64,000 nt of DNA from Nitrosopumilus sp. (GTDB taxonomy: Archaea > Thermoproteota > Nitrososphaeria > Nitrososphaerales > Nitrosopumilaceae): contig OZ243974.1 of the NCBI GenBank assembly GCA_965214775.1, forward strand, positions 2,016,001 through 2,080,000, in the 5' to 3' direction. The notes under the pieces are model-generated. The model saw only the letters and a program-made list of their open reading frames with translations. It searched no databases and was not told the DNA's origin. Positions within the stretch are counted from its first letter, which is position 1. Each line of letters begins with the position of its first letter. Made by a program: the position numbers and the translations under genes. Of the stretch, positions 5,214 through 62,223 are shown piece by piece.

Positions 5214-5521
5214 ACCAATATCTAGCATCAGTCTTCCCAGAAGTAACCCAAAATAGCCAATTTTGACCGAAACAGATCAATTAGGGCAGTCCTAGAAGGT
5301 ACTCATGCCTTACCAAAAGAACCAACTGAGACGTGATGCTCTTAACAACCCGCGCATATATCAAGATATCCTAAAGACCAGTCTTCCCATCTATGTTAAA
5401 ACGCCCGGGCCCTTTAGCGGCTGCGGATTGTGTCTCTCTGATCCACGCCTAGTTTAATATGGGCCGCTTTATAGCTTACGCTGGGTACAGGGGGGATCCG
5501 TTCCCTGCATGCGGCTGCGTG

Positions 5522-6652
5522 TTACTTGTCTGTTTTCTCCCTGACCTCGGGTGGCATCTTGGATGCTGCAGCTGCTGCTGCTGCGGCCTCTGCCCGGGCC
5601 AGCTTGAGTTTGTACGTCTTGGGATCGTGTCCGGAGTACGGCGTCCTTGTCACGAGCATGGACCATACGATCCTGATCATCTTGGTTGCCACGTGCGTCC
5701 TGGCCACCATGGGCCTTGCGCTGTTCCTCTTCTTGGATCTTGCATGGATCCTTCCCATCCTCTCGTCGTATATGGCGGCCGTCCGCACAGTCTGTAGCAT
5801 CGCCCAGTTGCACCTGCGGTTGGATGTCTTTCTCATTTTGCCGTGGTACTCCCTGTCGCCGGACTGGTGAACCGTAGGACACATGCCGAACCACGCAACA
5901 AGCTTGCCCGGGGTCTTGAACCTGGCAATGTCCCCGATCTCAGATACCAGCAGCATGGCCGTAAACGAGTCGATTCCCGGAATGCTCATCAGGATCCTCG
6001 CATCCTCGCTGACGCTGGCCTGCGCCGCTATCCTTGTCTCGATGTCCGCGATCTCCTCTGTGATCTGCCTGACCCTTCTGGCATGCACGCCGAGAACCGC
6101 ATCATCGTTTGGGTCGCCAAGATTCAGGGCGAACAGCTGCCCGAGTCCCTTGTTGGAGTACACGTGCGACGAGTCGATCCTCTCGTCATACCTGTCCAGG
6201 AGGCTGTGGATCTGGTTGATCACGGCCGTCCTGTCCTGCACGAGGCCGATCCTGCAGCGCATCAGCTCCCTGACGCTCCGGAGTTCGGGCGGTGCCACGT
6301 AGCACTCGGGAACCATTCCGGCCCTCAGGGCGTTTGCAAGCTTTCTTGCGTCGATCGGGTCCGTCTTTACGTCCATGTCGGAGATTATCCGCATCTTGTA
6401 GGTGTTGGCAAGCTTGATTGGTATTCCCGCGGACTCGAATGCCTCGTAGGTCTTGAGCCACATGTTGCCCGTGGACTCGCAGACGGCCTGGCAGTTCTTT
6501 CCGCCGTAACTGAGCTTTGCCTTCCTGGCAAACATGCCTGCCTCTCTGGATGTGTTCTCGTATGACGTCTCTTCCAGGATCCTCTTTTTGTCGTCCATAA
6601 TGCACGCTACGCATTTTCTCTTTCCAATGTCTATTCCTATGCTGTATTGCAT
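5522..6652 (-). CDS. IS110 DEDD recombinase/transposase
   Basis: IGIDIGK, CESTG, KTDPIDA (RuvC-like DEDD); IPGI, GMCPTVHQSG (Tnp serine); ATG at 6652. Confidence 0.95.
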   Translation of the reverse strand: MQYSIGIDIGKRKCVACIMDDKKRILEETSYENTSREAGMFARKAKLSYGGKNCQAVCESTGNMWLKTYEAFESAGIPIKLANTYKMRIISDMDVKTDPIDARKLANALRAGMVPECYVAPPELRSVRELMRCRIGLVQDRTAVINQIHSLLDRYDERIDSSHVYSNKGLGQLFALNLGDPNDDAVLGVHARRVRQITEEIADIETRIAAQASVSEDARILMSIPGIDSFTAMLLVSEIGDIARFKTPGKLVAWFGMCPTVHQSGDREYHGKMRKTSNRRCNWAMLQTVRTAAIYDERMGRIHARSKKRNSARPMVARTHVATKMIRIVWSMLVTRTPYSGHDPKTYKLKLARAEAAAAAAAASKMPPEVREKTDK

Positions 6653-6674
6653 CTTTTCTCGCTTTCCTCTTTTT

Positions 6675-6797
6675 GGTGGATCAGAGGCTGCACACATCTA
6701 TCAGCACGCCGTGGTGCACGAACACTGCAGCTCGGAATTACCGCATTCAGAAGTCAGCGCGCGGGGCGCATGGGAAGACAGCGGTTGATCCACACCA
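6675..6797 (-). ncRNA. Predicted bridge RNA of IS110-A
   Basis: Outer stem GUGGAUCA/UGAUCCAC enclosing loop 1 (guides GUCUUCCCA, ACUUCUG = target halves) and loop 2 (GUGUUCG, AUAGAUG = donor-junction halves). Confidence 0.85.
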
Positions 6798-6950
6798 CCA
6801 CCGCTACGGGCCCGGGCGTTTTTAACCCGTGTTCAGAAGTACCACGTCAAATTATCCCCGGCTCGAAACAATTCAAATAATGATGCCTGCATATCCGCAT
6901 GTCGTTTCTTGCACCTCCACGAGTCGGTTACTTCTGGGAAGACTGAAGAC

Positions 6951-8077
6951 CGTTGGCGACGGCATGGCCCCGTGCATCAAGACATCAGACAAGCACAACG
7001 CCATCTATGCTACAGACGACTTTATCAGGTGCCTGACGCGCGCGGCCGTATCCAACAGGCAGGTGGCAGGCTGCACGATGTCTGCACGTGACGTGCCAGC
7101 GGCTCCTGGAATGCCCCGCAATCCCACCGACGAGTGGATCCGCAGCGTCGCCATAAGATCCAAGCCCGGCCAGATCCAAGGCTGCCTTGCAGAAACCGTG
7201 GGCCGGCAGCTGAACCAGCTGAGGGATATGGGGATGATCACAAATGGCCAAAAGACGGATGCGGCAATAGACATGCACCTGATACCGCGCTATGACAAAA
7301 AGTACGGTAGTGAGCTTGTACGCTCCAAGAAGAAGAGCGGGACGATAGTCTGAGCGTTACATCACCATACAGTGCATCGTAAAGCACTGCCGCCTTGTGC
7401 TGGGAGCACTGCACATGCCGGCCCTTGAGGATACGGCCGATTTCGTGCGTAAAATCATCGATTCTGCACGCCGCACAGGCGCCGATCTTGGAGTCGTGAT
7501 GCTGGACCGCGAGTTCTTTTCGGCCGCAGTCATCTCCAAGCTGGATGCGGCCGGTGTCAGATGTATCATACCGTGCAAGAACACGGATGCAGTCGTTGCC
7601 ACCCTCAACGAGAATGGCGACGTGAAAAAAAGAAGGGAGGTCAAATCGGTCATATCCGGCACCACAAAGTCTGCACGGTACACGATGGTCATCACAAAGA
7701 GAAGGAAGAAGAGATCAGGCAAGACCGATGTGGAGAAGCTGCCGGCGCACGAGCGGCTCATCGGATTTGCAACCAACGTGCCCGGAATAGATCCGAACGA
7801 GTACAGCCGCAGGTGGGGGATCGAGACTGGATACAGGATGATAGAGAACGCAAGGGTCAGGACCCACAGCAAGAGCCCGGTCGTAAGGATGCTGTACTTT
7901 GTGTACTCGGCTGCGGTCTTCAACGCGTGGGTCATGGCAAACGCGATGATGAGAAACTTTACGGGGATCGTTACAGAGGATCCCCTGATCACCCAGCAGT
8001 GCCTCAATGACGTGATCAAGCGTGGTATGTCGGACTATAGGATGCTGCCCCAACCCCCTCCACCGGTGCCTCCATGA
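6951..8077 (+). pseudogene. ISH3 transposase, interrupted by insertion and frameshift/stop near 7350
   Basis: Two ORF pieces (..7353; 7397-8077) homologous to intact copies at 48946 and 54093. Confidence 0.85.
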
Positions 8078-8150
8078 GTTACTTCTGGGAAGACTGGGCA
8101 AGCGAAAACCTTCAAATAATTTTTAATCCTAGTATGTTTAACAGGTTTCA

Positions 8151-9319
8151 TATGCCAGAAAATCAAAAATTAAACCATGAATCCATAGTGGAAATGGAAA
8201 AGAGGGCCCGCAGGATAAGATCCAGCATTGATGAAATAGTGATGGAGGCAGACATGACAGGATCCGACTTTGAGGAATTAAAAAGCATGTTCGGGGAAAT
8301 AAGAAGGAAGATGGAGGGGATAAGATCGAATATCAAGATAATGAGAAGAGAGGCCGGCGTGGCAGGGCTTGACTTTGAGGAAATGATGACACATACTGGC
8401 ATGGCAGGATTCAGCTTTAAGAATGCAAGAACGAGTATCAGCCGGGTAAGATCCTGCGTTGAGGAGGCAGAAAGGGGGAGCGGCGTGGAAGTACTCAGGG
8501 TCAAGAAATTGTTAGATCATATCAGCACGATAAGATCTTACATTGGGAAGCATGGAGGAAGTGCCGACATGACAAGATCTGTCTTTGATCTGTTGGAAGT
8601 ATGGACTGACAGATTCAGAGCTCACTGCGTGGGAGTCAGAGAGGCGGTCAAGGGGTTGAGTGTGCCGGCAGAGTTGGGAATATCTGTCTACAGGAAAGTG
8701 GGAAAGGAGGTGGAGACGGCAAAGGCTGTGTTCAAGAAACTGGTAAGCATGTCTTATAAAACCGCCAAAAAGCCGCCACCATGGGGTACACAGAGATCTG
8801 ACTCGATGGAGGATGATCTTGAGCTGATAATACATGAACTCGGCGAACTAGAAAAGTATACAGGTGCAATGAGAGATAACTTTGAGGAATCAAAAGGATA
8901 CATCCTCAGATTACGATCTGAATTCGAGGAGATGAGAAAGAGCGCCTGCAGTGCAGGATCTGGCCTGCCAAAGCATTTGGGGAGACACGAGGATCCGCAG
9001 GCACAGGGCGGGGTCGGCAGGCAGGGATCCGTCCACGTACGAGCTGCGGCCCGAAAGCCTCCGGGTCGTGATCAGGGATACCGACATTGTCCTCAGAATC
9101 AATCCGAAGGGGCACCTCGACCCCATCCGCCGCCGGATTCTTTCACTGGCAGACGAGATCAGGACGGGGCTGAAGAGAATGGAGGCAGAAGGGGCCACGA
9201 TACCAGAGCGCGAGGACGTTGTAATCGCAAAAAACCGCGAAATCCTAGAGGCCGCCCTGGTCGACTTTGACTACGACGCCCATGCCGGGGATCCGCACCT
9301 GCCGCCTGCCACACTCTAG
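8151..9319 (+). CDS. Hypothetical coiled-coil protein, probably frameshifted or chimeric near 8950-9010
   Basis: Helical E/K/R/M-rich ORF degrades into low-complexity sequence while an overlapping frame (8951-9319) looks protein-like. Confidence 0.5.
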
Positions 9320-9335
9320 CGAATCGCCTGGAACC

Positions 9336-10095
9336 TAGTACCACGGCTACCAATTGATTACAAAAAGGACAATTTTTTTCAACCAAAGGATCTAAGATCT
9401 ACCAATCCCATATACACATGAAAGGAAAGAAGGAATTACCGGTGGGAACAGCGTTCCTACACGGGACAGCAGGCAAGGACGAGCTTTTTAGGATGCACAA
9501 GTCCGAAAAGGATGCCAAGGCGGCAATCCGGCTCCTTGCATACCATATGAGAAAGTGCGGCGCGAGCATATATGATATTGCCGAGAAGCTGAGCAGGCCG
9601 TATGGAACCGTACGATACTGGCTGGTGCGTGCGCACAAGCACGGCCTGGAGGGCAGGTTTGACATAAAGCACGGCGCCCCGTGCAGGCTCGACAAGAAAC
9701 AGATTGAACAGCTGCTGCGTACAGACCTGATCAAGGGCCCGGACAACTGCGGCTTTAAGGCCACAACATGGACAGGATCGCTGGTCATTGCCCACGTCAA
9801 AAAGAAGTTCGGCATCACGTATGCAGAAACGAGCATGTACGACCTGCTGCCCAGAATCGGCTTCTCATGCAGAAAGCCCAGGCCAAAACACCCAAAATCA
9901 GCCTCAGAACCCGAGAAAAAGGAGTTCGAGGAAAAGACCGGGCGGTGCACAAAGTACTATTCAAAAAAGGGGTACACGGTAATGATAGGCGACGAGGTAG
10001 GAGTTTATCCCGGAGTGGAACGTCAAGAACATCTGGTACGCCATAGGAAAGCCGGTCTATACGCCGTCCAACCTGTCAAGGAAGAGGTCCTACGT
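9336..10095 (+). mobile_element. IS630-family element, 3'-truncated and frameshifted
   Basis: Near-identical to the 5' two-thirds of the element at 22454-23588 (MKGKKELP..., MIGDE). Confidence 0.88.
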
Positions 10096-10307
10096 GGGTT
10101 GTTTCCTAATTCCATCTGCCTAGCTCAGTCTGCATGTTTTTCTGAATTTTTGCCCTTTTGCACGCCTGATCAATAGGCGTTATGCGTAATCGGTTTACAT
10201 CTGGGATTATTACGAACAAATTCGTCTCATTTATGTAGATTACGCATAAAGTCTAATGTGGCATCTCAACGGTTTTCAGGAATTCTGGCGAATTAGGAAA
10301 CAACACC
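10096..10307. mobile_element. MITE with IS5-like ends, containing a second MITE
   Basis: IR GTTGTTTCCTAATTC / GAATTAGGAAACAAC, resembling the IS end at 63627. Confidence 0.65.
10175..10254. mobile_element. 80-bp MITE of the 44752-46333 IS family
   Basis: TIR AG..TTATGCGTAATC / GATTACGCATAAAGTCT; TSD AAT. Confidence 0.85.
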
Positions 10308-10416
10308 CCAATAACTAGGTAAAAAACGATCCTTCTGATTCACATTTGGCTTTGCTGCTGCTACTGCTGCTGTTTTGCGTATAGATAAATACCAAATTGT
10401 CATAGGTATTTCAGAA

Positions 10417-11106
10417 ATGGCAGATGCTACAGTGGTAAGGTATTCCTATGAGGGCGAAAAATTTGAGATACTGGTAAAGCCTGATCCTGCCCTGGACTAC
10501 AAATTGGGAAAGAAAAAAGAGATCTCATCCGTTTTGATCTCAGATGACATTTACACTGATTCTGGAAAAGGCACAAAGCCTTCAACCGAAAAACTGCTAA
10601 AGGCGTTCAAAACTGAGAATGAGACCGAAATCGCAGCAATCATTCTTCAGAAGGGCGACCTGAATCTTACAACTGATCAAAGACGAAAAATGACTGAGGA
10701 GAAGAAAAAGCAGATTGTAGAGTATATCGCAAAAACGTATGTGGATCCAAAGACACACCTGCCCCATCCTCCATTGAGAATTGAGCAGGCAATGAAAGAC
10801 GGCAGGGTTTCTGTGGATTCTCAAAAAAATGTCGGTGAACAAGTCAAGGATATAGTTGACAAACTGCGTTCCATCATTGCCCTAAAATCTGAAAATCTGC
10901 AACTAGACATCACCATTCCTGCACAGTATGCCTCCCAGTCGTATGCCGTTCTAAAATCTGTAGGTTCGCTGAAAAAAGAAGAATGGCAAAACAACGGCTC
11001 GCTAAAAGCAATACTTGAAATACCGGCGGCGGCAAGGCCAAACGTGATAGACAGGTTGGGCTCTATAACCCGGGGATCTGCTTCAGTTGAGGTGGTAACA
11101 CAATAA
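10417..11106 (+). CDS. Ribosome maturation factor SBDS/Sdo1
   Basis: FEILVKPD, PHPPLRIEQAM motifs; head of exosome operon. Confidence 0.95.
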   Translation: MADATVVRYSYEGEKFEILVKPDPALDYKLGKKKEISSVLISDDIYTDSGKGTKPSTEKLLKAFKTENETEIAAIILQKGDLNLTTDQRRKMTEEKKKQIVEYIAKTYVDPKTHLPHPPLRIEQAMKDGRVSVDSQKNVGEQVKDIVDKLRSIIALKSENLQLDITIPAQYASQSYAVLKSVGSLKKEEWQNNGSLKAILEIPAAARPNVIDRLGSITRGSASVEVVTQ

Positions 11107-12520: not shown

Positions 12521-12522
12521 AA

Positions 12523-13344: not shown

Positions 13345-13345
13345 A

Positions 13346-14225: not shown

Positions 14226-14332
14226 CTTCATTCAAAGATATTCCGCCAAGATCAACTGGCTGAAATTTTGTAACCATATCAGTAGACGCTATATGAAATC
14301 TTATCTGTATCCTGTGATATACTATTACTGTT

Positions 14333-14450
14333 GGGCCTGAGAGTCGATCGGAACTTACCATGTACAAGGGTGTTCAGTAGACTGACTCGTAACAGCAGGC
14401 GGAAAGCAATGTACCGCGCAGAAGACGGTGAATGGAAGATTCCGCCCGGA
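14333..14450 (+). ncRNA. Predicted bridge RNA of IS110-B
   Basis: GAGUC/GACUC stem enclosing AUCGGAACU (14347-55) and UCAGUAG (14374-80); GCGGAA/UUCCGC stem enclosing donor-like AUGGAAGA. Confidence 0.78.
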
Positions 14451-14482
14451 TCAGGCATTTTGATCAGAAAGGAGGTGATAAC

Positions 14483-15562
14483 ATGATCAGCGTAGGAATA
14501 GACGTACACAAAAAGACATGCGTTGCAGCAGTAAAGGATGACTCTGGCAAGCTGCTAGAGCGATCCAAGTTTGAGAACAGCGTTTTGGCAACAACGAATT
14601 TTGCAACATATCTCAAGGAACAATACTGCGGACAGCTGCCAATAAAGGCAGTATGCGAGTCCACTGCCAACTACTGGATTATCGTACATGACACGCTTGA
14701 GGACTGCGGGATAGACACCGTGCTGGTGCATCCGGCAAAGGTCAAGGTGATAGCGCACGCCAAGATAAAGGACGACCGCGTAGATGCAAATATACTTGCC
14801 GACCTGCTCAGAGCAGACATGCTGCCAGAGTCGTTTGTGCCTGACAAGCACTACAGGGACCTCAGAATGCTGGGCAGGACCAGAACCGGCAAGACGGCAG
14901 AAGCCACCAGATGCAAGAACAAGATACACGCCATACTTGCAAAGTATGACTATGACCTGCCCACGCACAGCACGTTTACGATTTCTGCCATACAGCACAT
15001 CCAAGACGGGATAAAAATGTCAGAGATTGACGCGGCAACTGTGAAGATGTACCTTGATGACATCAAGAGGATACAGGATCAGATAAGGGATCTGGAGCGC
15101 AGCATTGCCTCTGTATCCGAAAGCGATACGAGGGCCAAGACGATTATGACCATGCCTGGAATAAGCCATGTCATTGCACTGACGATAATCTCTGAGATAG
15201 TCGATGTCAAGAGGTTTGCCACTCCAGAGAAGCTCGTCTCGTATGCAGGGCTGACTCCCTCGCGCAGGGACAGCGCAGACAGACACAAAGGAGGCGGCAT
15301 AACAAAGCAGGGATCCGTGTGGCTGCGCCAGGCCATGGTCAACTCGGCCACAGTCGCAGTACGAAACGACCCAAGGCTTGGTTCGATATATGAAAGGATA
15401 GGAAAGAGACGTGGATGGCAAAAGGCAAAGATTGCAGTTGCAAGACACATGCTGGAGATAATCTGGCACATGCTGACAACCGAAGAGGAGTACCGCACTC
15501 AGAACAAGGCTCTCACGCAGAGAAAGTATAAGAGGATGCATCGCATAGCAACATTGTCCTGA
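14483..15562 (+). CDS. IS110 DEDD recombinase/transposase
   Basis: SD GGAGGTGA; VGIDVHK, CESTA, KDDRVDA, MPGI, AGLTPSRRDS. Confidence 0.95.
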   Translation: MISVGIDVHKKTCVAAVKDDSGKLLERSKFENSVLATTNFATYLKEQYCGQLPIKAVCESTANYWIIVHDTLEDCGIDTVLVHPAKVKVIAHAKIKDDRVDANILADLLRADMLPESFVPDKHYRDLRMLGRTRTGKTAEATRCKNKIHAILAKYDYDLPTHSTFTISAIQHIQDGIKMSEIDAATVKMYLDDIKRIQDQIRDLERSIASVSESDTRAKTIMTMPGISHVIALTIISEIVDVKRFATPEKLVSYAGLTPSRRDSADRHKGGGITKQGSVWLRQAMVNSATVAVRNDPRLGSIYERIGKRRGWQKAKIAVARHMLEIIWHMLTTEEEYRTQNKALTQRKYKRMHRIATLS

Positions 15563-15627
15563 TTCGGAACATCACGCTGGCAAGGGTCCACGGTAGGATT
15601 AGGTACGATTTCATATGGGAGTTCCTA

Positions 15628-16721
15628 TACTGACGATCATTGAAAATTTCGCCTGATTACACGTCTTGTGAAGGTTTATAGATCTCCGCCATGGCCATTC
15701 TGACATGAACAAGACGAAAATCCTCACGGATGCCATGCGTGTGGAAAAGGATAACAGGGTTTATACCAGAATCCTGGCGGTGCGCTCCGTACTGCTTGGC
15801 AACACCACTGCACAGACCGCAGAGATTGCCGACGTGACACAGCGTACCGTACAGATATGGGTCGAGAGGTTTGAGCTTGACGGCGTTGACGGTCTCCGTG
15901 ACTCCCACAACAGGGGCAAAAAGCCAAAGGTCCCAGTCGGCAGGATAAAAAAGATCGCCATGAGGCTGCGCAGGATGGAAAAGCTCACCCCGAAGAAGAT
16001 GCGCAACTGGGTGCACCGCAAACTGCATGTCACATACAGCGTTGGAAGCATCAGAAGAATCCTGCGCACGATGGGATTCTCGCTAAAGACGTCAACCACC
16101 AAGCTGGCAAATGCTGCCGACGCAAAGGCGGTAAGACGGTGGCAAAGGGAGGCAAAAGACACGATTAGGCTTGCAAAAAGGCGCGGATTCAGGATAACCG
16201 TACAGGACGAGTCGATATTCGTCAGTACGGGAAGGGACGGCAAAAAGTTCTGGTCGCCAGTGGGGGACAGGATCGAGGTGCAACGATCCGGCAGAAGGGA
16301 GCGCGTCGTGGTATACGGAACGGTTGCAGACAACGGAACCAGGCTGATGCGCACATACGACAAGTTCAACAGCATAAACTTTGTGCGTTATCTCAAGCAG
16401 GCGCACAAAAAGTGGGGAAAGGTTCTGATTGTGATGGACAACGCAGCACAGCATAAGACCGAAAGGGTCCGCAAATACCTGGAGAAAAATCCTGACGTTA
16501 TCCTGCTGTACCTGCCGGTAGCTAGGCCGGAGCTGAGCGCCATAGAGCCAATCTGGAAGGATGCCAAGTACATGCTGGTCACATCTGCCTTTTACGATTC
16601 GGTAGATCACCTCAAAAGGGATGTCTCGGAATACTTTAGGACGTGTTCCATCAAGGTTGACATCTACAAATATCTTGAGCGCCGCGTGTAAGGGAGGCGA
16701 AATTTTCAATGATCGTCAGTA
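15628..16721 (+). mobile_element. IS630-family element (complete; transposase 15705-16691)
   Basis: 26-bp TIR TACTGACGATCATTGAAAATTTCGCC, TA flanks; QDES, MDNA..H, PELSAIE.IW. Confidence 0.93.
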
Positions 16722-16723
16722 TA

Positions 16724-16883: not shown

Positions 16884-17039
16884 CGGAATCTCCCATTCAC
16901 CGCCTGCGCGGCACGTTGCTTTCCGCCTGCTACTGCGAGTCAGCCTACTGAGCACCCTTGTACATGGCAAGTTCCGATCGACTCTCAGGCCCAACAGTAA
17001 TGTTGGATCACAGGATACGGATAAGATTTCATATAGCGT
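16884..17039 (-). mobile_element. Orphan IS110-B left end with bridge RNA (inverted second copy)
   Basis: Reverse complement closely matches 14286-14444; flank CTACTG = CAGTAG target half. Confidence 0.88.
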
Positions 17040-17405: not shown

Positions 17406-17414
17406 GAACAGCTA

Positions 17415-46333: not shown

Positions 46334-47278
46334 AATAATAAAAAACAAAAAACTCTGCAAAGAAATCGAAAAACACCTGAGCAAACTCTTGCTTGAACTT
46401 GATGCAAAACACAGCCTAAAACTATCTGAAACGTGCACATCGTACAAAAAGACTGGCAACCCTGCATTGAATCTCATCTTCAGGACTGAAAGCAAAATGA
46501 TGTTTGGACAGCCGTTTTATGTGGTAGCTCAAGATCAGCTTGACCTGGGGGGATTCAAGATAAGAAAAGATCTCAAAATCGAAATCGGCACAAGAACCAT
46601 AGCGTCGCTTGGACTGTTTTTGCAGAGGATAAAGAGCACGGGAATCATCCTATATGGCAGAGACATTAGAAAGGAAATTCCAAAAACGGTTCCAGAGATT
46701 GAAAAAGTAAAGGCGTTATTTAACGCAATGCTTCTCCTGATGATGAGTTTTGTAATCTTTCCATACAGTCCAAAGTCTGCTTTTTTTCATGCGGTAAAGG
46801 CAAACTTTTGGGCATGCGATGACGTGCTTTTTGCATTAGACAGGCCCCTCTCAACAACTACACAAGAAATAGCGGAAATCTGCTTTCTTTTTAACAAGTC
46901 TGGGATTGATTCGGATCATCTGATGCGATCACTGGAATACAAGAAAGCCAATGATGACACGCCGATGAAGAAGGGGTTTGTCATACAATACATGCTAAAG
47001 AGCACAAAGTTTGTTTATGGGCTGTATGCGGCTGCCTTGAGAAAATTGTTCAAGTTGTAGTGGTGATCTGGATTGGAAAATGAAAACTAGAATTCAAACC
47101 TGTCAGCCAAACTATCATGTTGGATCCTTTTTGCGTTTCAATAATCTGGTTTGACACGTCTGATTTGGATATTGCATGACAATACGCGTATGAGACCGCC
47201 TATCACTGCTGGCCAAGTATGAAAATCATGACTGCATGTGGATTCACGCCTATCTGCCAAGTGGAGGTGGTCTCGTAC

Positions 47279-47369
47279 GTACGAGTTTACCCCTCACCTG
47301 AGATACGATGTGGCAGGCGTGATCATGAAGGCTCCAGACACCAGTGACGCCTAAGGGGTAAACTCGTAC
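47279..47369. mobile_element. 91-bp IS66 family-1 MITE (GTACGAG variant)
   Basis: GTACGAGTTTACCCCT / AGGGGTAAACTCGTAC; 9-bp TSD GTCTCGTAC. Confidence 0.92.
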
Positions 47370-47508
47370 GTCTCGTACAACCGAATAATCGTAACCGTAT
47401 GTGTCTCAACAAAATTCAGATGGTGCCAAAATAAATGGCAACGCAGACAAACAGACTGCCGCAAAAAAGAGGACACATGTGAAATCAAAGGCGGTGCAAC
47501 AGCAACAA

Positions 47509-51672: not shown

Positions 51673-53224
51673 GTAAGAGTTTACCCCTTACCTATTTGGT
51701 GAATTCTTTCTGACCACCCGATCTATAAGATAGTAGTACCTAGGAAAATGCATGTCATCAGGCTCGGAGGTCAAGATACTGCGCGACGAGATTGCATGTC
51801 TCATAGCCGAGTGCGGAAAGAATGAGAAAACCATCGCCGATCTGCAGCAGGTAGTAGTCAAAGATGCCACAGAGAAGGCCGAGCTTGCAACACAGGTCGT
51901 GCTGCTGACGGCAGAAAACCAGCAGCTCAAACAGCACATCAAATATTACGAGAACCCGCACACCCCATCCTCGCAGAACTCGATTCCGACCAGGCAGCAA
52001 AAGGCAGCTGCGGCAAAGGCATCAGGCAACGTACCGGCATCTGCAAAGGCAAAACCGGGCCGCAAACCGGGACACGAGGGAGTATCACACAAGAGAAAGC
52101 CGACTGAGTTTGTAAAGCACTGCCCCAAAAAGTGCGACAAGTGCAACAGCACCAACATGAAGAAGCCCGAAAAGTTGTTCTCAAAGACCGTGACTGAGAT
52201 CCCCAAGAAGCCCAAACCGGTCACGACAGAGCACACCGCATACAAACGCGAATGCGCCGACTGCGGCCACGTGTCAATCGAGGATGACAGGGACTGGAAC
52301 GTGCAGGGAACCGAGTTTGGACCAAACATTACGGGGATGATAACCTCAATGCACATGGCACCTGTCTCCATACAGGCCACGGCCACAATGTGCTCAGAAA
52401 TCCTGGACATGGATGTCTCAGAGGCAGGCGTGTTGCAGTGCCTGAGGGCCTGCACCAAGGCAATAAAACCCAGCGTAGAGGGCATCAAGCAGGCCATCCG
52501 GGATTCTGATTATCTGCATATTGACGAGACTGCCATGCCATACAACGGCAGGACGGCCCGCATATGGGTAATAGTGGGCAAGAACAAGGACGGCTCCACG
52601 ACCGGCGTCCACACGCTGGCCGCACCCAGCAGGGCCAGGGTCGTAGTGGATACGAACTTTCCGTATTATGATAAACCAGTTACAGTTGATGGGTACGGCG
52701 TATATGTCGTATTCAAGATCAGGCAGTGGTGCTGGGCACACATACTCCGGGAGGCCAAGGACGCCGGCAAGACTTCCCGGCAGGCCCACGCGCTGTATGA
52801 TGCCCTCAAGAAAAAATTTCTTTTTGCCAAGGGGCTGGGGCCACCACCACCACCGGAGGAGAAGAAGAACGGTGTCAGGCAGCAACAACACGACATGCTG
52901 GTAGTCGAGACACGCGCGCTGGCCGTAGCATTCAGGGAGGCAGGTTGCAAAAAATTTGCCACAAAGCTTGAGAATGCCTCAGAATACCTGTACACGTTCG
53001 TGCTGTATCCGGGCATGGAGCCCACCAACAACCTGGCCGAGCGCATGCTGAGGCCGTCCGTAATTGCGCGCAAGATATTCCAGGGACTCCGTACCATGGA
53101 GGGCATGGAGATGTTCACCGTACTGATGACGTGTACGATGAACTGGCGCGCCCAAGGGTGTAACGTGAGTGAGATGGTCGCCAAGACCCTGACTGGAAAC
53201 GTCGCCTGAGGGGTAAACTCTTAC
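51673..53224 (+). mobile_element. IS66-family single-ORF element, family 1 (intact transposase 51752-53209)
   Basis: TIR GTAAGAGTTTACCCCT; Zn finger, HIDET, VDGY, WCWAHI.R, PTNNLAERMLR; no TSD. Confidence 0.94.
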
Positions 53225-53953: not shown

Positions 53954-54001
53954 TAAGTGAAATGTATAGTGCGGCGTTGTCCGGAATTTTTCCAGAAATC
54001 T

Positions 54002-55247
54002 CAGTAGTTCCGATTGTGGCCTGAAAATAAGGCAAATTGACAGATTTTTATGATCACTTGGATCTATAGGGGGAACTTTTAGCAATTTCTCCATGACAAA
54101 AAGTGCCAGGGCCGCTCAAAAGCCGTACGGACACAGGGAGCGCAAGATGTTCCAGAACGCCGTCTCGGCAGTAGGCATGAAGTTCTCTGACAGACACAAC
54201 GCAATATACGATGAAACGGATGCAGCTGCGCTTCTGGCAACGATGTCCAAGGAGCGCATGTGCGCAGAACAGGCCGCAGAGATACTCCGGGACTCTGCAG
54301 GCCGCAGCCCCGGCGCCGACTGGCTGCTTGGCAAGCTGGGCCAGGTGGACTATGAGACGATGCACAAGAGGGCCGACAAGATCCTGCGCAGGACCGTCAC
54401 AGACTCCATCAAAGGTGGCCTGATTGGAAAATCCCCGATCATAGCCATCGACAAGACCAAGATCCCGCGGTACGACCGCAATCCGGACATGACCCACAAG
54501 ATAAAGTACAGGGGGCCGGGCACCCGCACGGCTGAGGCATACATCACTGCAAGAACAGTAGGACAAAAGCACCAGACGCACCTTGCGTGCCTTCCGGTGA
54601 CCAGGGACGCGTTTAACCCCGAATTCGTGCGTAAATTGCTGCAAACCATCAAGAGAATGCACATCAGGCCGCAGATGGTCCTGATGGACAAGGAGTTTTA
54701 CTCAGTTGACGTACTCAACACGATAAATAATGCAGGATTGCGGTTCATGACTCCTGCAGTATGCACCAAGGGAGTTGAGAGGGCCATACAGGAGCACATA
54801 GACGGGCACAGGGATGCAGTCAGCAAGTATACCATATCCTCTGGCAGCAGCAAGATAAGATGCAACCTGATAATACTGGAAAGGGAGGATAAAAACAAGA
54901 AAAAGTTCCACATCGCCTTTGTCACCAACATGACCAACTGCATGCCGGAGGATTTGTTTGAGCTTCCCGAGGAGTACCGCAAGAGGTGGGGAATAGAGAC
55001 CGGATACCGGGACGTCAAGAGGGCCATGCCGCGCACCTGCAGTCGGAACGATGCCATAAGACTCATACTGTTCTACCTGTCGCTTGGAATGTCTAACATC
55101 TGGATGATCGCAAGATCATGGTGCAAAAAAAAGAAGATCAAGCTCAAGGTGCTGCTTGCCCGGATTATAAGATGGTGTATGAGACCATGGAACAAAAAGC
55201 CCCCCGATCCGGGCTAGGGCAGGCCGGGGTCACAATCGGAACTACTG
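54002..55247 (+). mobile_element. ISH3-family IS (intact transposase 54093-55217)
   Basis: TIR CAGTAGTTCCGATTGTG; 5-bp TSD AATCT; YRKRWGIETGYR. Confidence 0.94.
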
Positions 55248-55342
55248 AATCTACCGATAAGCTTATAGATCATAAGCGCAGGATGCGACAACCTTATGGA
55301 TCATAGGATCGACGTCCCCGTATCAATGAAATCAAAGACCAA

Positions 55343-55416
55343 CAAGAAGGAATCCAAGAAGGAATCCAAGAAGGAATCCAAGAAGGAATCCAAGAAGGAA
55401 TCCAAGAAGGAATCCA
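55343..55416 (+). repeat. 12-bp repeat (AAGAAGGAATCC) x6 encoding KKES
   Basis: Direct reading. Confidence 0.93.
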
Positions 55417-56669
55417 GCAAGACCAGCAAGAAAAAAAAGTCAGAGTACACGAGACCTCCGGAATACTATGCCGAGTACGAGAAAAAAAGGAGAGAGGACA
55501 GCAAGAGGTGCGGCATCGGAATCAAAAAGATCCGCAAGATCCTCCTGTCCCTCCTCCATAACACAGAGCAAGAGGATGAAATTCCCTATCTTCTGTGCGT
55601 ACTCGACATGGAGTACCGCGGAAACTCGTATCGCAGACACGTCGAATACATGGAGTCGAATCCTGGTTCAACTAACATGTACGGGCTCAAAAAGGTTCCG
55701 GCCAAGTCGACACTGCATGATGCAGCCGTAAGGATAGCTGCCTGGGACAAGTCGGTGCTAAGATCGGTACTCTCAGAACAGGCAGGCGCAGACGCCAGGG
55801 GAACGTTGCTTGGCGACTCTAGCGGTTTCTCCATAATGAGATACCACACATGGGAGGACGCAAAGAAGGGCGTCATATCCAGGCAGATGTTTGCCAAGCT
55901 GCACATACTGTTGGCCCCGCACGGCAAGATTGCCGCCTGCGAGGTGACGCCGGGCGAATTCCATGATTCCCCGGTGTTCCGTAACGAGCTGCTACCGCAG
56001 GTTCCCAACGGCACAGGACACGTGATCCTGGATGCCGCATACGACTCGTATGAGAACTGCAGGGTCATAGCCGACGGAGGCAGAACCCCAGTGATATGTC
56101 CGCGTATAGGATATACGGTTCACGGGTTCAACGCCCGCTCCAAGATGCTAAGATGGCACAAAAAGGACCCCGAGGGATTCGAGAAGACGTACCACCAGCG
56201 CAGCCTCGTTGAGTCGGCCTTCTCGTCGATAAAGGCAAGGTTTGACTCCACGGTGCGCGCCATGTCGCTTCCGATGCAGTCGCTCAGGCTTACCCTCAAG
56301 GTATTCTGCTACAATCTGGTCAGCTAGGATCCATAATGCCGGTACGGTGGAATCGTCCGGCTAGCGGATGCTATGCAGTATGACGTCAAAACACGGGCCA
56401 TAACTGCACAATGCGGGCCGGAGTGCGGATTCGTCTCTATGTTTGCAGTCATTGCGCCATGATTTTGTACAAATCTCCCCGGAAATCACGTCCTAAAATC
56501 ACGATTCCGGACAACGCCGTATAGTGCGCACAGTTGAAATCCGAACACTTTCTATCGAAATAGACACGATATATCAAAATTAGTCCGTTTTTTTATAAGT
56601 TGACTACAGCTTTGTCATGACAGGGTACCTGCGTCCCACATTCCATACGTATCGCCTCCCACAGCCAGC

Positions 56670-58083
56670 TAGTTTGTTGCATAACCCTTCCTAAAATTTG
56701 AAATCTGACCGAAAATCACCAAAATGATCAACTAATTCTGACCGAAAAAGTAATGGATCATGAGGATGCCTCGTATGGTATACATTGGCACACACGGACA
56801 ATGCAAAGTACGTAGAGAGAGGGGCAGGCCTGGTCGTCAAGTACGACCCCGGCTGGGAGAAGGATCTCAAGGTTGCCAACCGCCACAAGGAGGGCGCCCC
56901 GTTCCTGTACGCCGAAGGCATGATAATGGCCGCAGCCGCCCTCAGGACCGCATTCATGATAAAATACAGGCAGCTGTCAGGCATGTTCGAGGAGATGCTA
57001 AAGGGTGCGGACTCGCCGTGTTACACCACGATATTCAGAAGGATGCAGAAGCTTGACGTCGACATTGCAGAGAACATAATTACGGTGCGCGACAAGACCT
57101 GTAACCTGGTCATGATAGCTGACGCCACGGGCCTCAAGCAGCACAACCGGGGCGAGTGGATACGCAAGAAATGGAAGGTAAGGCGAGGATTCGTCAAGAT
57201 GCACCTGATGGTTGATGCAGACACCAAGCAGGTGCTTGCAGTATCTGTCACAAGTGATGCAGTAGGCGACAGCACGGAACTGCCGGCACTGCTTGAGGAG
57301 GCGGCCAAGAACATCAAGAAGGAAGAGGAAGAAGAGGAGCAGAACCGCACCGACAGCGCGGATGCAGTCAAGAACATCAAGAAGGAAGAGGAGCAGAACC
57401 GCACCGACAGCGCGGATGCAGTCAAGAACATCAAGAAGGAAGAGGAAGAAGAGGAGCAGAACCGCACCGACAGCGCGGATGCAGTCAAGAACATCAAGAA
57501 GGAAGAGGAGCAGAACCGCACCGACAGCGCGGATGCAGTCAAGATCCCCAACATGCTTGCAGACGGGACATCGCCGCTGGCTGTACTCGGCACCGGCGCG
57601 AATCCAGATATACCGGGAAAGATCCTGCCTGCAGACGGCGCATACGGCTCAAGGAAAAACGTAGCCGAGTGCCACAAACGCGGCATAAAACCGCTCATAC
57701 GGCTTTTGACAAGTTGCAATGCAAAGGGCAAGGGCACCGGCGACAAGTGGGGCCGGCTGGTGCGATGGCAGCTCGGGGGCGGCCCCGAGGTGCCGGTGGG
57801 TGATCTCTCAAAGGAGGAAAGACAGGAGAACCTGCGGTACTGGAAGAGCACGGTCGGCTTTGGCAGCAGATGGATCGTCGAGATCGTGATATCGGCCATA
57901 AAGCGTATGTTCGGCGAGGGCGTAATGGCCCTCAAGTGGTCCAATATAGTGCAGGAAGTAAATCTGAGGATATGGCTGTACAACAAGTGGATCGCAGAGG
58001 CGGTGGCTGCCGTGTAGGGACCGGGCGCCGGTCATGATCCAGGCGGACTAACTTGGCTCTAGTCGGAGTTATGCAACAAACTA
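56670..58083 (+). mobile_element. IS5-family (IS903-like) element, transposase 56785-58017
   Basis: TIR TAGTTTGTTGCATAAC; 8-bp TSD CAGCCAGC; four internal 63/54-bp repeats. Confidence 0.93.
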
Positions 58084-58162
58084 CAGCCAGCTCGTGGTTT
58101 ATATAGTGAAATGATTTTCGGATGCTAGAGGTTCAAGCTAGTGTGCGGTACGGCAAGCAGAA

Positions 58163-58874
58163 ATGAGCGATTACAAAAAAAAAAACAATCCTTGGTAAAC
58201 TAAAGTACCATTGCAAAAAGTGCGTCCTTACCACCATCCCGGGGTCACGTTCGGTTCATTTGTTCTTGCATACGAAACTACTACGTGGGTATCTTCCTTC
58301 TAACGCAACAGTCGCACAGGTAAAGTCGACAATACCGGATTTATTCGAAGGCAAATATTCCAGCGTCCTGTACATAGGTGCGAGTTACCTGAGACAACAC
58401 TTTCTGGACGACTTTGTACGCATGTATGATCGTGTCGTAGTGCTTGAGATCGATAAGAAAAACGCAGAATATGTCAGGCAGAAATTCGACCTGCCGGGAG
58501 TTACCGTGGTATGCGGTGACGTACGCAATACAGCGGACTTGATGGACGGAGAGGGAATGGGGGGGCGGCGGCGGTTCGATGCATGCTTCTTTTACCACGG
58601 TTTGGAACACCTGCCCAAGGAGGATGTCGCTGATGTGCTAAACACGCTTGAATCCATAACAGATCATATAATCGTGCTTGGAATGCCATACGGCCATTAT
58701 GAGCAGGATTCTGAATACGGGAACGTATACGAAAGACACCTTTGGGACATCTATCCGGACGACATGCACCGGCTGGGATATCGAACCTACACGATAGGGG
58801 ACGTAGACGACACCTCATCAAACATGATTGCTTGGAAGCACACCGGTAAGAAGACCTCTGGACTCAAAAAGTAG
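58163..58874 (+). CDS. Class I SAM-dependent methyltransferase-like protein, 5' end frameshifted at A11 tract
   Basis: VLYIGA, VLEID, GDV, LEHL; ATG 58163 in frame only if tract is A10. Confidence 0.75.
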
Positions 58875-58934
58875 CCTGATGACGGTGTGGATCCCGTGCT
58901 TTCCTTTGTATAAGACATTCCATATAACACACTC

Positions 58935-59126
58935 CCCCTTTTTGATCAAAGTGTGTGCGCCCAACTGAACGGAAAACTCCCATTCGCCCTCGATTATGTG
59001 GCATTTCGTCGTCCGCCTGCTCTGAGCCAGTCTCATACACGCCCTCATATGTGGCAAGGTTACTTCGGCTCCTGGGCCCAACACGGATAATATGGCGTCC
59101 GCTACGGATAAGATTTGATATAACGT
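58935..59126 (-). mobile_element. IS110 left end C with bridge-RNA-like NCR and no transposase
   Basis: Homologous to 14286-14475 and 61970-62152; flank GTATGAG repeated inside the stem-enclosed loop. Confidence 0.78.
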
Positions 59127-59140
59127 CTCATACGTTTTTT

Positions 59141-60226
59141 ATGTGTGATAGCCACCAAAATGTCACGTTGAGACTGTTGTGCGTCTGCCAGGAATCAAAA
59201 TTACTTCCTGAACGGGAGATCATCGAAAACCTAGGGGAATACTCGATAGCGTGGAAGATCGTCGGCACGAGTCAGTTCCTTGAAAAGGGCGTCAGAAGAC
59301 TGCCCATACTAAACAGAACAAAAAAGAAAAAATTCGAAAGGCTGCTAGATGAGTTCAACCCCGATTTTGTCATGCTGGACAGTCCAAGCGAGCTGGGGCC
59401 TATTGCAGCCGGCAAAAAAATACCGGTGCTGGTGTATTTCTGGGACAACTGGTCGTACCGGGAAATGGAAAGGGACAAGATGGTTTATCGCAGCATGTAT
59501 CATGCCGTACGGGCCCGCGTGATGAATCCCTGCCTGAAAAGGGCCTCCGTCATACTTGCCGAGACTGACTCCGTAGCCGATACCATAAGGGAGCACCATC
59601 CCCGAAGCAGCGTGACGACGTTCCCCTATTCCAGCATAGATACGGACTATTGGAGCGGCGACGGGCGCAATGGCAGGGGCATGGCGCTGAGACATCCGTG
59701 CGTGGGCCTGTTGCAGCATGCCAACGAGTGGTTCAAGGCAAAGGAGATGCTCATCCTGCCCCGGGTCGTCGAGGCGCTCCCACACGTAACATTCTACTGG
59801 GCCGGCGACGGGCGGTACCGCGACAGGATACTGGGGCCGCTGGCCGGATACGACAACTTTGAGTGGCTGGGGGCACTCGAATACCCCGACAGGGTCAGGG
59901 ACTATCTCTCCTCGATCGACATATACGGCCTTGCCAGCGCCATCGAAATGTCGCCGTACTCGCTAAAACAGGCCATGTCCATGGGCGTGCCGGCGATCGT
60001 CACAGATAGTGACTACATATCAGCAACGATGCTGGACGGTAAGACGGGGTTTCTGGTCAGACGGGGGGATCATGAGGGATGGATAGAAAGGATCTTGCTG
60101 CTGCTAGGTGACGTAGAGAGGGCGCAGGAGGTGGGGAGGCAGGGGCGCAGGTTTGTACGGGACAGCTGGGACAGCAGGCTGGCAGCAGAAAAGCTTGTCG
60201 CCATCCTCAAAAGCGTCAGGTCGTAA
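59141..60226 (+). CDS. Glycosyltransferase family 4
   Basis: WAGDG, EMSPYSLKQAMSMGVP, GKTGFLV; last codons replaced by IS66 end; start uncertain. Confidence 0.87.
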   Translation: MCDSHQNVTLRLLCVCQESKLLPEREIIENLGEYSIAWKIVGTSQFLEKGVRRLPILNRTKKKKFERLLDEFNPDFVMLDSPSELGPIAAGKKIPVLVYFWDNWSYREMERDKMVYRSMYHAVRARVMNPCLKRASVILAETDSVADTIREHHPRSSVTTFPYSSIDTDYWSGDGRNGRGMALRHPCVGLLQHANEWFKAKEMLILPRVVEALPHVTFYWAGDGRYRDRILGPLAGYDNFEWLGALEYPDRVRDYLSSIDIYGLASAIEMSPYSLKQAMSMGVPAIVTDSDYISATMLDGKTGFLVRRGDHEGWIERILLLLGDVERAQEVGRQGRRFVRDSWDSRLAAEKLVAILKSVRS

Positions 60227-61774
60227 GAGTTTACCCCTCAGGCGACGTTTCCAGTCAGGGTCTTGGCGACCATCTCACTCACGTTACACCCCTGGGCGCG
60301 CCAGTTCATCGTACACGTCATCAGTACGGTGAACATCTCCATGCCCTCCATGGTACGGAGTCCCTGGAATATCTTGCGCGCAATTACGGACGGCCTCAGC
60401 ATGCGCTCGGCCAGGTTGTTGGTGGGCTCCATGCCCGGATACAGCACGAACGTGTACAGGTATTCTGAGGCATTCTCAAGCTTTGTGGCAAATTTTTTGC
60501 AACCTGCCTCCCTGAATGCTACGGCCAGCGCGCGTGTCTCGACTACCAGCATGTCGTGTTGTTGCTGCCTGACACCGTTCTTCTTCTACTCCGGTGGTGG
60601 TGGCCCCAGCCCCTTGGCAAAAAGAAATTTTTTCTTGAGGGCATCATACAGCGCGTGGGCCTGCCGGGAAGTCTTGCCGGCGTCCTTGGCCTCCCGGAGT
60701 ATGTGTGCCCAGCACCACTGCCTGATCTTGAATACGACATATACGCCGTACCCATCAACTGTAACTGGTTTATCATAATACGGAAAGTTCGTATCCACTA
60801 CGACCCTGGCCCTGCTGGGTGCGGCCAGCGTGTGGACGCCGGTCGTAGAGCCGTCCTTGTTCTTGCCCACTATCACCCATATGCGGGCCGTCCTGCCGTT
60901 GTATGGCATGGCAGTCTCGTCAATGTGCAGATAATCAGAATCCCGGATGGCCTGCTTGATGCCCTCTACGCTGGGCTTTATTGCCTTGGTGCAGGCCCTC
61001 AGGCACTGCAACACGCCTGCCTCTGAGACATCCATGTCCAGGATCTCAGAGCACATTGTGGCCGTTGCCTGTATGGAGGCAGGTGCCATGTGCATTGAGG
61101 TTATCATTCCCGTAATGTTTGGTCCAAACTCGGTTCCCTGCACGTTCCAGTCCCTGTCATCCTCGATTGACACGTGGCCGCAGTCGGCGCATTCGCGTTT
61201 GTATGCGGTGTACTGCTCTGTCGTGACCGGTTTGGGCTTCTTGGGGATCTCAGTCACGGTCTTTGAGAACATCCTTTCGGGCTTTTTCATGTTGGTGCTG
61301 TTGCACTTGTCGCACTTTTTGGGGCAGTGCTTTACAAACTCAGTTGGTTTTCTCTTGTGTGATACTCCCTTGTGTCCCGATTTGCGGCCCGGCTTTGCCT
61401 TTGCAGATGCCGGTACGTTGCCTGATGCCTTTGCAGCAGCAGTCTTTTTCTGTCTGGTAGGAATCGAGTTCTGCGAGGATGGGGTGTGCGGGTTCTCGTA
61501 ATATTTGATGTGCTATTTGAGCTGCTGGATTTCTGCCGTCAGCAGCACGACCTGTGTTGCAAGCTCGGCCTTCTCTGTGGCATCCTTGACTACTACCTGC
61601 TGCAGATCGGCGATGGTTTTGTCCTTCTTTCGGCACTCGGCTATGAGACGTGCAATCTCGTCGCGCAGTATCTTGACCTCCGAGCCTGATGACATGCATT
61701 TTCCTAGGTACTGCTATCTTATAGATCGGGTGGTCAGGAAGAATTCACCAAATAGGTAAGGGGTAAACTCTTAC
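60223..61774 (-). mobile_element. IS66 family-1 element, transposase pseudogene
   Basis: Near-identical inverted copy of 51673-53224 with premature stops (61513, 60586). Confidence 0.93.
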
Positions 61775-62152
61775 GTTCCACGTTGCCTCGCAGACTGTCT
61801 GGATCTTGCGTAGTGCATGTTCCCCTTTGATCTGCCCGGCAGACTTTCTTGCTGCATCGGCCGTGTTGGAAAACTCTATCTGTCCCAGAATCTTTGCGGA
61901 ATGGTTCTTGATGGCTGCTGTACGCGTCTTTTTATGAACGCCTATTCCCATGCTGATCATTGTATCGCCTCCTTTTTGATCAAAGTGTGTGTGCCCAACT
62001 GAACAGAAAACTTCCACCCACCCCTAGCATTTCGTTGTCCCCTCCCACTCTCAACCAGTCTCTTACATGCCCTCATATATGGCAGAAGTACTTGTTCCTG
62101 GGCCCAGCATGGATAATATGGCGTCCGCTATGGATAAGATTTGATATAACGT
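61775..62152 (-). mobile_element. Truncated IS110 element D (left end, NCR, ~62 codons)
   Basis: MISMGIGVHKK...VCEAT cut by IS66; flank GTACGAG; NCR guide GTAAGAG. Confidence 0.82.
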
Positions 62153-62223
62153 CTCGTACAGCAAGTGATCGAAAAAGCTAAAAAGAGGCAAATCCACCTA
62201 GACTTGATGAAAGATTTTAGCTG

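Follow-up and report, generated by a model that had tools for sequence, protein, structure and literature searches.

Examination of a 64,000-nucleotide window (bases 2016001-2080000) of the 2.83-Mb single-contig genome of Nitrosopumilus sp., which encodes an archaeal AmoA as fits an ammonia-oxidising archaeon, revealed five left ends (LEs) of IS110-family insertion sequences (ISs) set against terminal sequences of other mobile elements. Two of them, A and B, belong to the only complete IS110 elements of the window, and the other three, B', C and D, are truncated, dead LE remnants (Table 1). A first-pass annotation of the DNA had placed the five LE starts at 6833 (-), 14286 (+), 17039 (-), 59126 (-) and 62152 (-), and all five proved exact to the base. 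The limits that it gave to the whole array also fit, 5379 being the final base of the host repeat to the right of A and 62159 the first base of the D flank GTACGAG.

Recombinases were assigned with Pfam models PF01548 (DEDD_Tnp_IS110) and PF02371 (Transposase_20) and with NCBIfam model NF033542 ('IS110 family RNA-guided transposase', cut-off 140 bits), and other transposases with NF033541 (ISH3, cut-off 225), NF033517 (IS66, cut-off 180), NF033545 (IS630-like) and NF033579 (IS5-like). Fragments of recombinases were sought by tblastn and copies of the LEs by genome-wide blastn, which returned 43 LEs, whole or fragmentary (40 B/C/D-type, three A-type). The starts of LEs were fixed by the abrupt change from variable to conserved sequence among genomic copies. 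Twelve of the 40 B/C/D-type LEs were without a loop or an LE start and were set aside; 28 were scored for agreement of guide and flank.

The IS110 hallmarks, namely tips without terminal inverted repeats (TIRs), no target duplication and one short core common to both junctions, were all found. The core dinucleotide, AG in B, C and D and TG in A, precedes the LE and forms the tip of the right end (RE), and intact targets hold a single core. Element A starts with AACACGGG and ends with ...AACATAGATG, with TG at both junctions. The LEs of C and D start with ACGTTATATCAAATC, and the C right end is ...ATTTGATATGGGAG; another right end, read from the copy at 403765 (GGGAAG|TTTAC), was dropped. The two Pfam domains were found in the A and B recombinases with E-values of 4e-26 to 5e-23. 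An alignment of B with IS621 (8wt6) by phmmer placed its GIDVHK, CEST, KDDRVDA and RRDSA motifs opposite D11, E60, D102/D105 and S241 of IS621 (residue numbers as given in PMC11208158); the check covered B alone, and the N-terminal stretch of the alignment is weak by itself (i-Evalue 0.14). In A to D, the recombinase gene is preceded by 135-150 nucleotides (nt) of non-coding DNA and followed by only about 60-130 nt. Subterminal inverted repeats measure 10 bp in B (ATATGAAATC / GATTTCATAT) and C (ATATCAAAT / ATTTGATAT) and about 19 bp in A, and those of B have extensions of 7 nt on the left (core counted) and 3 nt on the right.

In each scaffold an internal loop, the predicted target-binding loop, is enclosed between a lower stem and an upper one capped by a hairpin. 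In A, the 5' strand of this loop (TGTCTTCCCAT, 6770-6780) exactly complements the core plus the right flank GGAAGAC, the cap is a GCGC/GCGC hairpin (6757-6769), and the 3' strand ACTTC-TG-AA equals the left flank, the core and LE nt 1-2. In B, the order is GAGTC, GATCGGAACT, UACC-loop-GGUG, UUCAGUAGACU and GACTC; GATCGGAACT is the complement of AG followed by TTCCGATC, and the 3' strand carries TCAGT-AG-AC. The right-target strand stands 5' of the left-target strand in A, B, C and D alike. A second internal loop is a candidate donor-binding loop. Its 3' strand in A, ATAGATG, equals the final 7 nt of the RE (7/7), and its 5' strand GTGTTCG complements AACAC, with which the LE begins. The 3' strand in B is AATGGAAG (AATGGGAG in most copies), to be compared with the RE end TATGGGAG; for B and C, AATGGGAG agrees with TATGGGAG at 7/8 positions. 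No handshake guide is claimed: the 2 nt after the core equal LE nt 1-2 in A, B, C and D, but in only one of three copies in the related genome G002.

The first-pass annotation had described, for all five LEs, a stem-enclosed internal loop with a strand repeating the element's own flank, and such a loop is indeed present in every one. Over the final 7 nt of flank, the left guide matches 7/7 in A (ACTTCTG), in B and B' (TCAGTAG) and in C (GTATGAG), and 6/7 in D, where the guide reads GTAAGAG and the flank GTACGAG. Covariation of guide and flank over all genomic LE copies was a check that the annotation had named, and it bears the idea out. Flank and core are matched 7/7 in 13 and 6/7 in 11 of the 28 scored LEs, and at least four of the five non-core positions agree in 24. 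When the 25 unique guide/flank combinations were permuted, the observed agreement at six non-core positions (104/150) compared with a mean of 56 (standard deviation 7.2) and was reached in none of 20000 permutations; the B scaffold taken alone gave 70/102 against a mean of 42, again with 0/20000. As to the right guide, TTTAC follows five of six C-type right ends, and at the level of guide classes 32 of 35 positions match the multicopy target, as compared with 41% for mismatched class pairs.

That B, B', C and D have one RNA scaffold in common, with guides changing in step with flanks, had also been proposed, and it holds both in the genome at large and in relatives. Scaffold identity is 89% between B and B', 81% between C and D and about 68% between B and C, and across 16 B-type LEs variation gathers in the two strands of the loop, at columns 64-68 and 88-93. 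When 11 sequences covering three scaffold versions and two genomes were submitted to RNAalifold, both stems of the target loop were predicted unprompted. In the structure that we named, 99.2% of cells pair and four of the 12 pairs change on both sides (for example from A-U to G-C in five sequences), while shuffled and slid controls lie far lower, at most 41% paired. The same prediction gives long-range pairs 43-52/147-155 and 119-122/134-137, which conflict with the proposed inner stem of the donor loop.

Related genomes supply further guide/flank pairs. A B-like scaffold in G002 bears three guides, GCGAAAG, GCAAAAG and TCAAAAG, each equal to its own flank at 7/7 positions. An A-like scaffold matches its left flank 7/7 and its right flank 6/8 in G002, and its left flank 6/7 in G015. 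In G014, the donor loop strand and the right end both read ATAGGTG where A has ATAGATG, so that the two change together.

The sequences specified by the left and right guides are multicopy and lie at or close to the termini of other mobile elements. CAGTCTTCCCAGAAGT (99 matches) is the terminal repeat of a MITE (transposable element of the miniature inverted-repeat type) of about 121 bp and of a 1.3-kb IS; CAGTAGTTCC (33 matches) forms the termini of the 1246-bp IS at 54002-55247 and of a 1.5-kb IS; and GTAnGAGTTTAC / GTAnGAGTTTACCCCT (125 matches) those of a MITE of about 90 bp and of the 1552-bp IS66. Since the outer sequence varies in all three, the IS110 element sits inside the tip of the host repeat, at 11 nt from the tip in A, 6 nt in B1 and 7 nt in C/D. 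Counts of the guide-specified 11-/12-mers in the genome are 92/88 for guide class A, 62/60 for C2, 26/12 for B1 and 17/17 for B2b, against a chance expectation of 1.35/0.34. Occupancy is low, the 99, 33 and 125 intact target matches comparing with about 2, 9 and 10 occupied ends.

The flanks had been assigned at first to TIRs of ISH3 and IS66 elements. They are the termini of other IS and MITE families, as claimed, and the IS66 assignment is above the model's cut-off (200 bits against 180). The three transposases of CAGT-ended or CAGTCTTCCCAGAAGT-ended ISs have ISH3 as their best NCBIfam match at 124-140 bits, below the cut-off of 225; 'ISH3-like' is a fair label for these putative members of that family. 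The further proposal that each flank is the very start of a TIR is accurate for the five LEs of the window and fails for other B subclasses, which lie 45-58 nt inside element ends. These further guide classes of the B scaffold are all found outside the window: TTATAG|ATCAT or ATCTC at that distance within the left ends of an IS5-like element, a related IS and an IS630-like element; AAACAG|ATTA (B3) in the left end of E, which is a third lineage of IS110; and TTACAG in one copy.

Lineage E encodes a 376-amino acid (aa) recombinase (NF033542, 236 bits) in six open reading frame (ORF) copies (for example at genome 634000-635540 and 1626200-1627700) and has its insertions within the initial 5 nt of the repeat of a third MITE, 108 bp long (36 repeat matches), at GTAAC|AGGTTAGCCCC. 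Its left junction is itself a target: A2, whose protein is 88% identical to that of A and whose guides are ACATATG and GTATAACCA, sits exactly there, and four further A-type right ends have the GTTAC flank seen for A2. The GTAACCATAT that precedes the left flank of B equals the first 10 nt of this junction.

Table 1. Features of the IS110 elements, their hosts and their targets in the window (positions are those of the window)
Feature	Position	Strand	Details
ISH3-like IS, 1.3 kb	5229..8096		terminal repeat as in A's host MITE; split at 5378/6946 by the A-bearing MITE
Final 9 nt of A's host MITE repeat	5379..5387	-	GGAAGACTG; directly right of A
IS110-family element A, complete, 1446 bp	5388..6833	-	same boundaries in the copies at genome 1437276 and 1982893
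A recombinase ORF, 391 aa	5522..6697	-	PF01548 + PF02371; NF033542 232 bits
A candidate donor-binding loop	6687..6731	-	outer stem GCTGCA/TGCAGC
A target-binding loop (predicted)	6743..6780	-	two strands matching right and left flank
Left part of the ~121-bp MITE hosting A	6834..6945	-	repeat CAGTCTTCCCAGAAGT begins at 6945; ends ...ACTTCTG at 6834
B left flank CAGTAG	14280..14285	+	first 6 nt of ISH3-like terminal repeat; upstream GTAACCATAT
IS110-family element B, complete, 1336 bp	14286..15621	+	LE start ACGCTATATGAAATC; RE end ...GATTTCATATGGGAG; core AG; 10-bp subterminal inverted repeat
B target-binding loop (predicted)	14341..14388	+	lower stem GAGTC/GACTC; upper stem UACC/GGUG
B candidate donor-binding loop	14404..14446	+	outer stem GCGGAA/TTCCGC; inner stem ACC/GGT
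B recombinase ORF, 376 aa	14432..15562	+	PF01548 + PF02371; NF033542 248 bits
B right flank TTCC	15622..15625	+	4 nt of expected TTCCGAT; interrupted by the IS630-like element
IS630-like element	15626..16723	+	terminal repeats TATACTGACGATC...; NF033545 180.7 bits
B', solo LE fragment, ~150 nt, without ORF	16890..17039	-	89% identical to B; flank CAGTAG; intact target loop 16937-16984
Intact IS66 copy	51673..53224	+	NF033517 200 bits vs 180; both ends are uninterrupted C/D-type targets GTAAG-AG-TTTAC
Intact ISH3-like IS, 1246 bp	54002..55247	+	NF033541 134.9 bits, below cut-off; uninterrupted B-type target CAGT-AG-TTCCGAT at either end
C, solo LE fragment, ~190 nt, without ORF	58935..59126	-	target loop 59024-59071; flank GTATGAG; single-copy DNA beyond
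IS66 copy, 1552 bp, inserted in D ORF	60223..61774	-	repeat GTAAGAGTTTACCCCT
D, LE and first recombinase codons, ~380 nt	61775..62152	-	target loop 62053-62098; flank GTACGAG vs guide GTAAGAG

With this anatomy, with guides that covary with flanks and stems that covary in sequence, and with targets identified as multicopy ends, A and B, as well as B', C and D before their truncation, are very probably IS110-family elements steered by a bridge-type RNA to transposon-end sites. A DEDD/Ser recombinase would be guided by an RNA that the non-coding part of the left end encodes. The 5' strand of the target loop would pair with the core and the right target on the top strand, and the 3' strand, having the sequence of the left target and core, would pair with the bottom strand, while the 3' strand of the second internal loop matches the element's own right end and might thereby select the donor. 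A circular donor would then be recombined into the guide-specified site at the 2-nt core, which would leave the core at both junctions and no target duplication; the predicted RE-LE junction of a B circle is ...ATGGGAG + ACGCTATATG... The guides appear to address sequences that owe their high copy number to a position at or near the ends of other mobile elements, and they have diverged on an unchanged scaffold to give at least eight specificities. The RNA is presumably made and bound and the recombinase presumably active; a split host repeat would be expected to disable the host copy.

Several results weigh against this interpretation. The LEs at 369541, 1269606, 1690520 and 2169388 (4/28) do not match their flanks. 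The right guide fits less well in B-type LE-RE pairs, with 37/55 over the first 5 nt in 11 copies, a value reached in 460 of 20000 permutations of the nine unique pairs, and scoring of LE-RE pairs gave 35/63 against a mean of 29 (436/20000), an RE being found within 2.5 kb in 11 of the 28 copies. Three pairs (2634799, 2751228 and 2787936) have unrelated right flanks, their junctions being clearly rearranged, and for the D right guide a search in three registers found no multicopy target in the genome. The A-like copy of G014 fits its flanks poorly (left 5/7, right 2/8). The 5' strand of the donor loop, matched in A, has no match to the LE in B and C. A scan of the window at Rfam gathering thresholds returned only a transfer RNA and no family matching the loops, and the z-scores of minimum free energy for sequences folded singly (+0.5 to +0.9) do not stand out, as may be expected of a structure made mostly of loops. 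Finally, many copies have long flanks in common, so that independent insertions must number well below the copy count.

The preference for transposon ends could be taken for hyperparasitism with a fitness effect, in which IS110s would be selected for disabling other transposons, or for a benefit to the host, in an RNA-guided arms race. The host repeat is split 5-11 nt from its tip, and every IS110 lineage in the genome is aimed at another mobile element, other IS110s included (A2 at the E junction, B3 in the E left end). Hits are also returned, by an IS66 in D, an ISH3-like IS in a C LE and MITEs abutting 28-nt stubs of B LEs. The low occupancy given above speaks against such a selection, and in some cases the target is a non-essential leader and not a terminal repeat. 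Bacterial relatives, moreover, target harmless repetitive extragenic palindromic (REP) sequences equally readily, as described in PMC11208160, so that abundance alone explains the choice of target. We regard selection for damage as unlikely. In our view transposon ends were chosen mainly because selection favoured landing sites that are abundant and harmless, with damage to the host elements as a probable side effect; as a word for their habitat, 'hyperparasite' is fair.

A second alternative reduces the insertions to a handful of ancestral events, most copies being duplicated segments or host elements with an IS110 as cargo. Flank sharing is what suggests it: a 16-nt flank, GTAACCATATCAGTAG, is common to B, 2746644 and 2751228, 30 nt of flank are common to 181547, 1124122 and 1252185, and D has a second copy at genome 1802389, 100% identical over the 168-nt LE query and with the same 30-nt flank. 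Repetition of flanks is, however, expected where the target itself is a repeat, and the permutations used unique combinations only. Guides differ between classes exactly where flanks do, B1 copies show at least six different sequences outside the CAGTAG flank, and G002 and G015 hold independent guide/flank pairs. Such a history is accordingly quite improbable as an account of the guide/flank agreement. Recognition of the site by the protein alone, the identity of loop and flank being a by-product without guiding role, such as a left-junction sequence copied into the element, is hardly credible: the 3' loop strand with its next 2 nt does mimic the left junction (TCAGT-AG-AC) and such internal copies take part in rearrangements, but two separate strands covary with two different flanks, both lie in a conserved, covariation-supported internal loop as in the experimentally proven bridge/seek RNAs of PMC11208160 and PMC11187229, and recombinases 90-98% identical are found at different targets.

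The RNA-guided reading of the elements leaves the local arrangement of the window to be described. Only A retains both halves of its host repeat there, ACTTC-TG preceding A and GGAAGACTG following it, within the right repeat of the MITE (6945 to 5379). Positions 5229-8096 form a three-layer nest in which a 121-bp MITE interrupts an ISH3-like IS of the family to which it belongs and is itself interrupted by A. The two parts of the split IS sum to the 1301 bp (150 + 1151) of the intact copy at genome 1783274-1784574, whose transposase scores 123.8 bits with NF033541, below the cut-off of 225. In B', C and D, only the left 6-7 nt of the host repeat are present.

The non-coding region upstream of B recurs, by DNA comparison, at 17051-16884, which is B', and a related version of it is common to C (59133-58934) and D (from 62159 downward). 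Two other interpretations of the B/B' neighbourhood were rejected. A miniature derivative with its own right end (17039 to 16685) was discarded, since the DNA beyond about 150 nt belongs to another repeat family and a 40-nt match to the region downstream of B is the terminal repeat of the IS630-like element; and B and B' do not lie in two repeats of that element, which begins with TATACTG, 4-6 nt past the IS110 junctions. The leader of the IS630-like element contains a second B-type site, GGTTTATAG|ATC, near 15676. An IS5-like element with repeat GGCGTTGTCCGGAAT occupies 53973-56518 (ORF 55296-56327, NF033579 99 bits, below the cut-off); the intact ISH3-like IS breaks it at 54001/55248, and it still holds an unoccupied B2-type site, TTATAGATCAT, at about 55263.

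Near C, a 423-aa ORF (58955-60226) encodes a glycosyltransferase only from about residue 116, and its 5' part is a spurious read-through of the C LE fragment on the opposite strand. An N-terminal ORF fragment of D was located by tblastn near 61987. Elsewhere in the window, a 91-bp MITE (47279-47369, within 47270-47378) lies between 9-bp direct repeats, GTCTCGTAC, that are the reverse complement of GTACGAG|AC, a left junction of C/D type; the match may be accidental, or an earlier C/D insertion may have left it behind. At genome 1269606(-), a C-type LE has its first 5 nt and its flank in inverted form (GTAAC CTCATAC), as if the junction had been inverted.

Further observations concern the other IS110s of the genome and of relatives. 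The downstream region of lineage E, about 300 nt, holds two loops capped by GAGGG-N-GATCCTC, whose strands resemble its own target (GTAAC / TTAACCT) and right end (ATAGATAA). At genome 1874821-1874895, an ISH3-like IS has its end directly against a C LE that starts only at about position 75 (CAGTAGTTCCTAGG, other strand), a reciprocal insertion, and MITEs with the repeat CAGTCTTCC stand directly after 28-nt stubs of B LEs at genome 893497 and 1771853. At 1348670(-), 2788413(+) and 1209796(-), the DNA encoding the left guide has apparently acted as a false left junction. These three sites include a 95-nt LE stub whose last bases are the guide TCAGTAG, followed at once by TTCCGAT of the host IS, a right end joined to LE position 94 (GGGAG|ACTGACTCG), and a case where only 19 nt of right end are left between CAGTAG and TTCCTAG; they recall the 'half-match' recombination described in a preprint (10.64898/2026.08.31.748434). 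The A-like IS110 of G014 (G014:C1:1820476-1824543, about 1180-1400) lies inside an apparent CRISPR array, 12 nt after a repeat; the array has three repeats of about 30 nt ending GATAGGATTGAAAG, with spacers of about 37 nt.

A wider picture may be drawn tentatively, that of a self-contained RNA-guided transposon war in which four scaffolds (A, B, C/D and E) with at least eight specificities would address the ends of mobile elements, each other's junctions included, and the targets would insert back. Under it, A to D might constitute an undescribed architectural class, with guide order of IS1111 type, long subterminal repeats and the RNA in the left end, and the left-guide DNA could serve as a built-in half-site that yields 95-nt stubs and right-end-to-loop junctions and so limits the element's own lifespan. 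We see this picture as possible rather than probable.

These elements constitute a compact natural data set on the evolution of bridge-RNA guides, with about 40 B/C/D LE copies and three A copies, in which B-type copies differ almost only at guide positions and intact and occupied targets stand in one genome. They provide the sequence signature of the mechanism in an archaeon, with IS110s living almost entirely inside other transposons. The findings are relevant to the annotation of nested ISs and the counting of IS families in these genomes, and to the search for compact recombinases with new cores (AG, TG) and guide layouts.

Recombinases of the IS110 family are known from archaea (10.1101/2024.06.21.599552), and a survey of mobile elements of Thaumarchaeota (PMC6563490) leaves IS110 unmentioned in its main text. 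For bridge RNAs directed at the ends of transposons, our literature search returned no account from Nitrososphaerota or other archaea; it did not extend to supplementary tables (Durrant et al.; Krupovic et al. Table S1), which may list these elements. The novelty that the first-pass annotation had supposed for Nitrososphaerota is upheld to that extent, while the principle is already published for bacteria, in IS1383, in ISEc21 and as guide redirection, beyond the IS4321/IS5075 example that it had cited.

The closest likeness is to IS621, as described by Durrant et al. 2024 (PMC11208160) and Hiraizumi et al. 2024 (PMC11208158), which has a DEDD and Ser recombinase, an RNA in the left-end non-coding region with target and donor internal loops, a left guide pairing with the bottom strand and a right guide with the top strand, both including the core, and multicopy repeats as targets. 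The elements described here differ from it in having the right-target guide 5' of the left-target guide, guide lengths of about 5+2 and 2+4-7 nt instead of 9 and 4 nt, a core of AG or TG instead of CT, subterminal repeats of 10 bp (B/C) and about 19 bp (A) instead of 2-3 bp (PMC11208160), and an archaeal host with transposon ends in place of REP sequences as targets. ISEc21 (Siddiquee et al. 2024, PMC11187229) likewise draws its guide RNA from the upstream non-coding region, has a natural target in transposase genes of the IS3 family and shows natural guide redirection in its relative ISMch6. In ISEc21, however, the bottom-strand match stands 5' of the top-strand match, the opposite order, and the target is coding sequence rather than a terminal repeat (PMC11187229).

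TIRs of other transposons are the targets of IS4321/IS5075 (Tn21 family) and of IS1383 (IS1384) as well. Those elements are bacterial and have one specificity each, as opposed to many on common scaffolds in one genome, and IS4321/IS5075 belong to the IS1111 group with its long downstream non-coding region. The seekRNA elements of that group (ISEc11, ISPa11 and ISKpn4; PMC11187229) resemble ours in placing the complement of the top strand before the bottom-strand match and in their subterminal inverted repeats (7-17 bp) with short terminal extensions, for which B has 7 + 3 nt. They differ from A to D in the position of the RNA region, which is upstream of the recombinase gene in the latter; lineage E alone has the full downstream layout. 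The layout of A to D is a hybrid, with the guide order of the IS1111 type and long subterminal repeats, but the upstream RNA of the IS110 group. Natural redirection of guides has been published for ISEc11/ISXne4 and ISEc21/ISMch6 (PMC11187229), and we rate the Nitrosopumilus elements as an archaeal case of a known RNA-guided principle, which they leave unchanged and to which this single genome contributes unusually many specificities.

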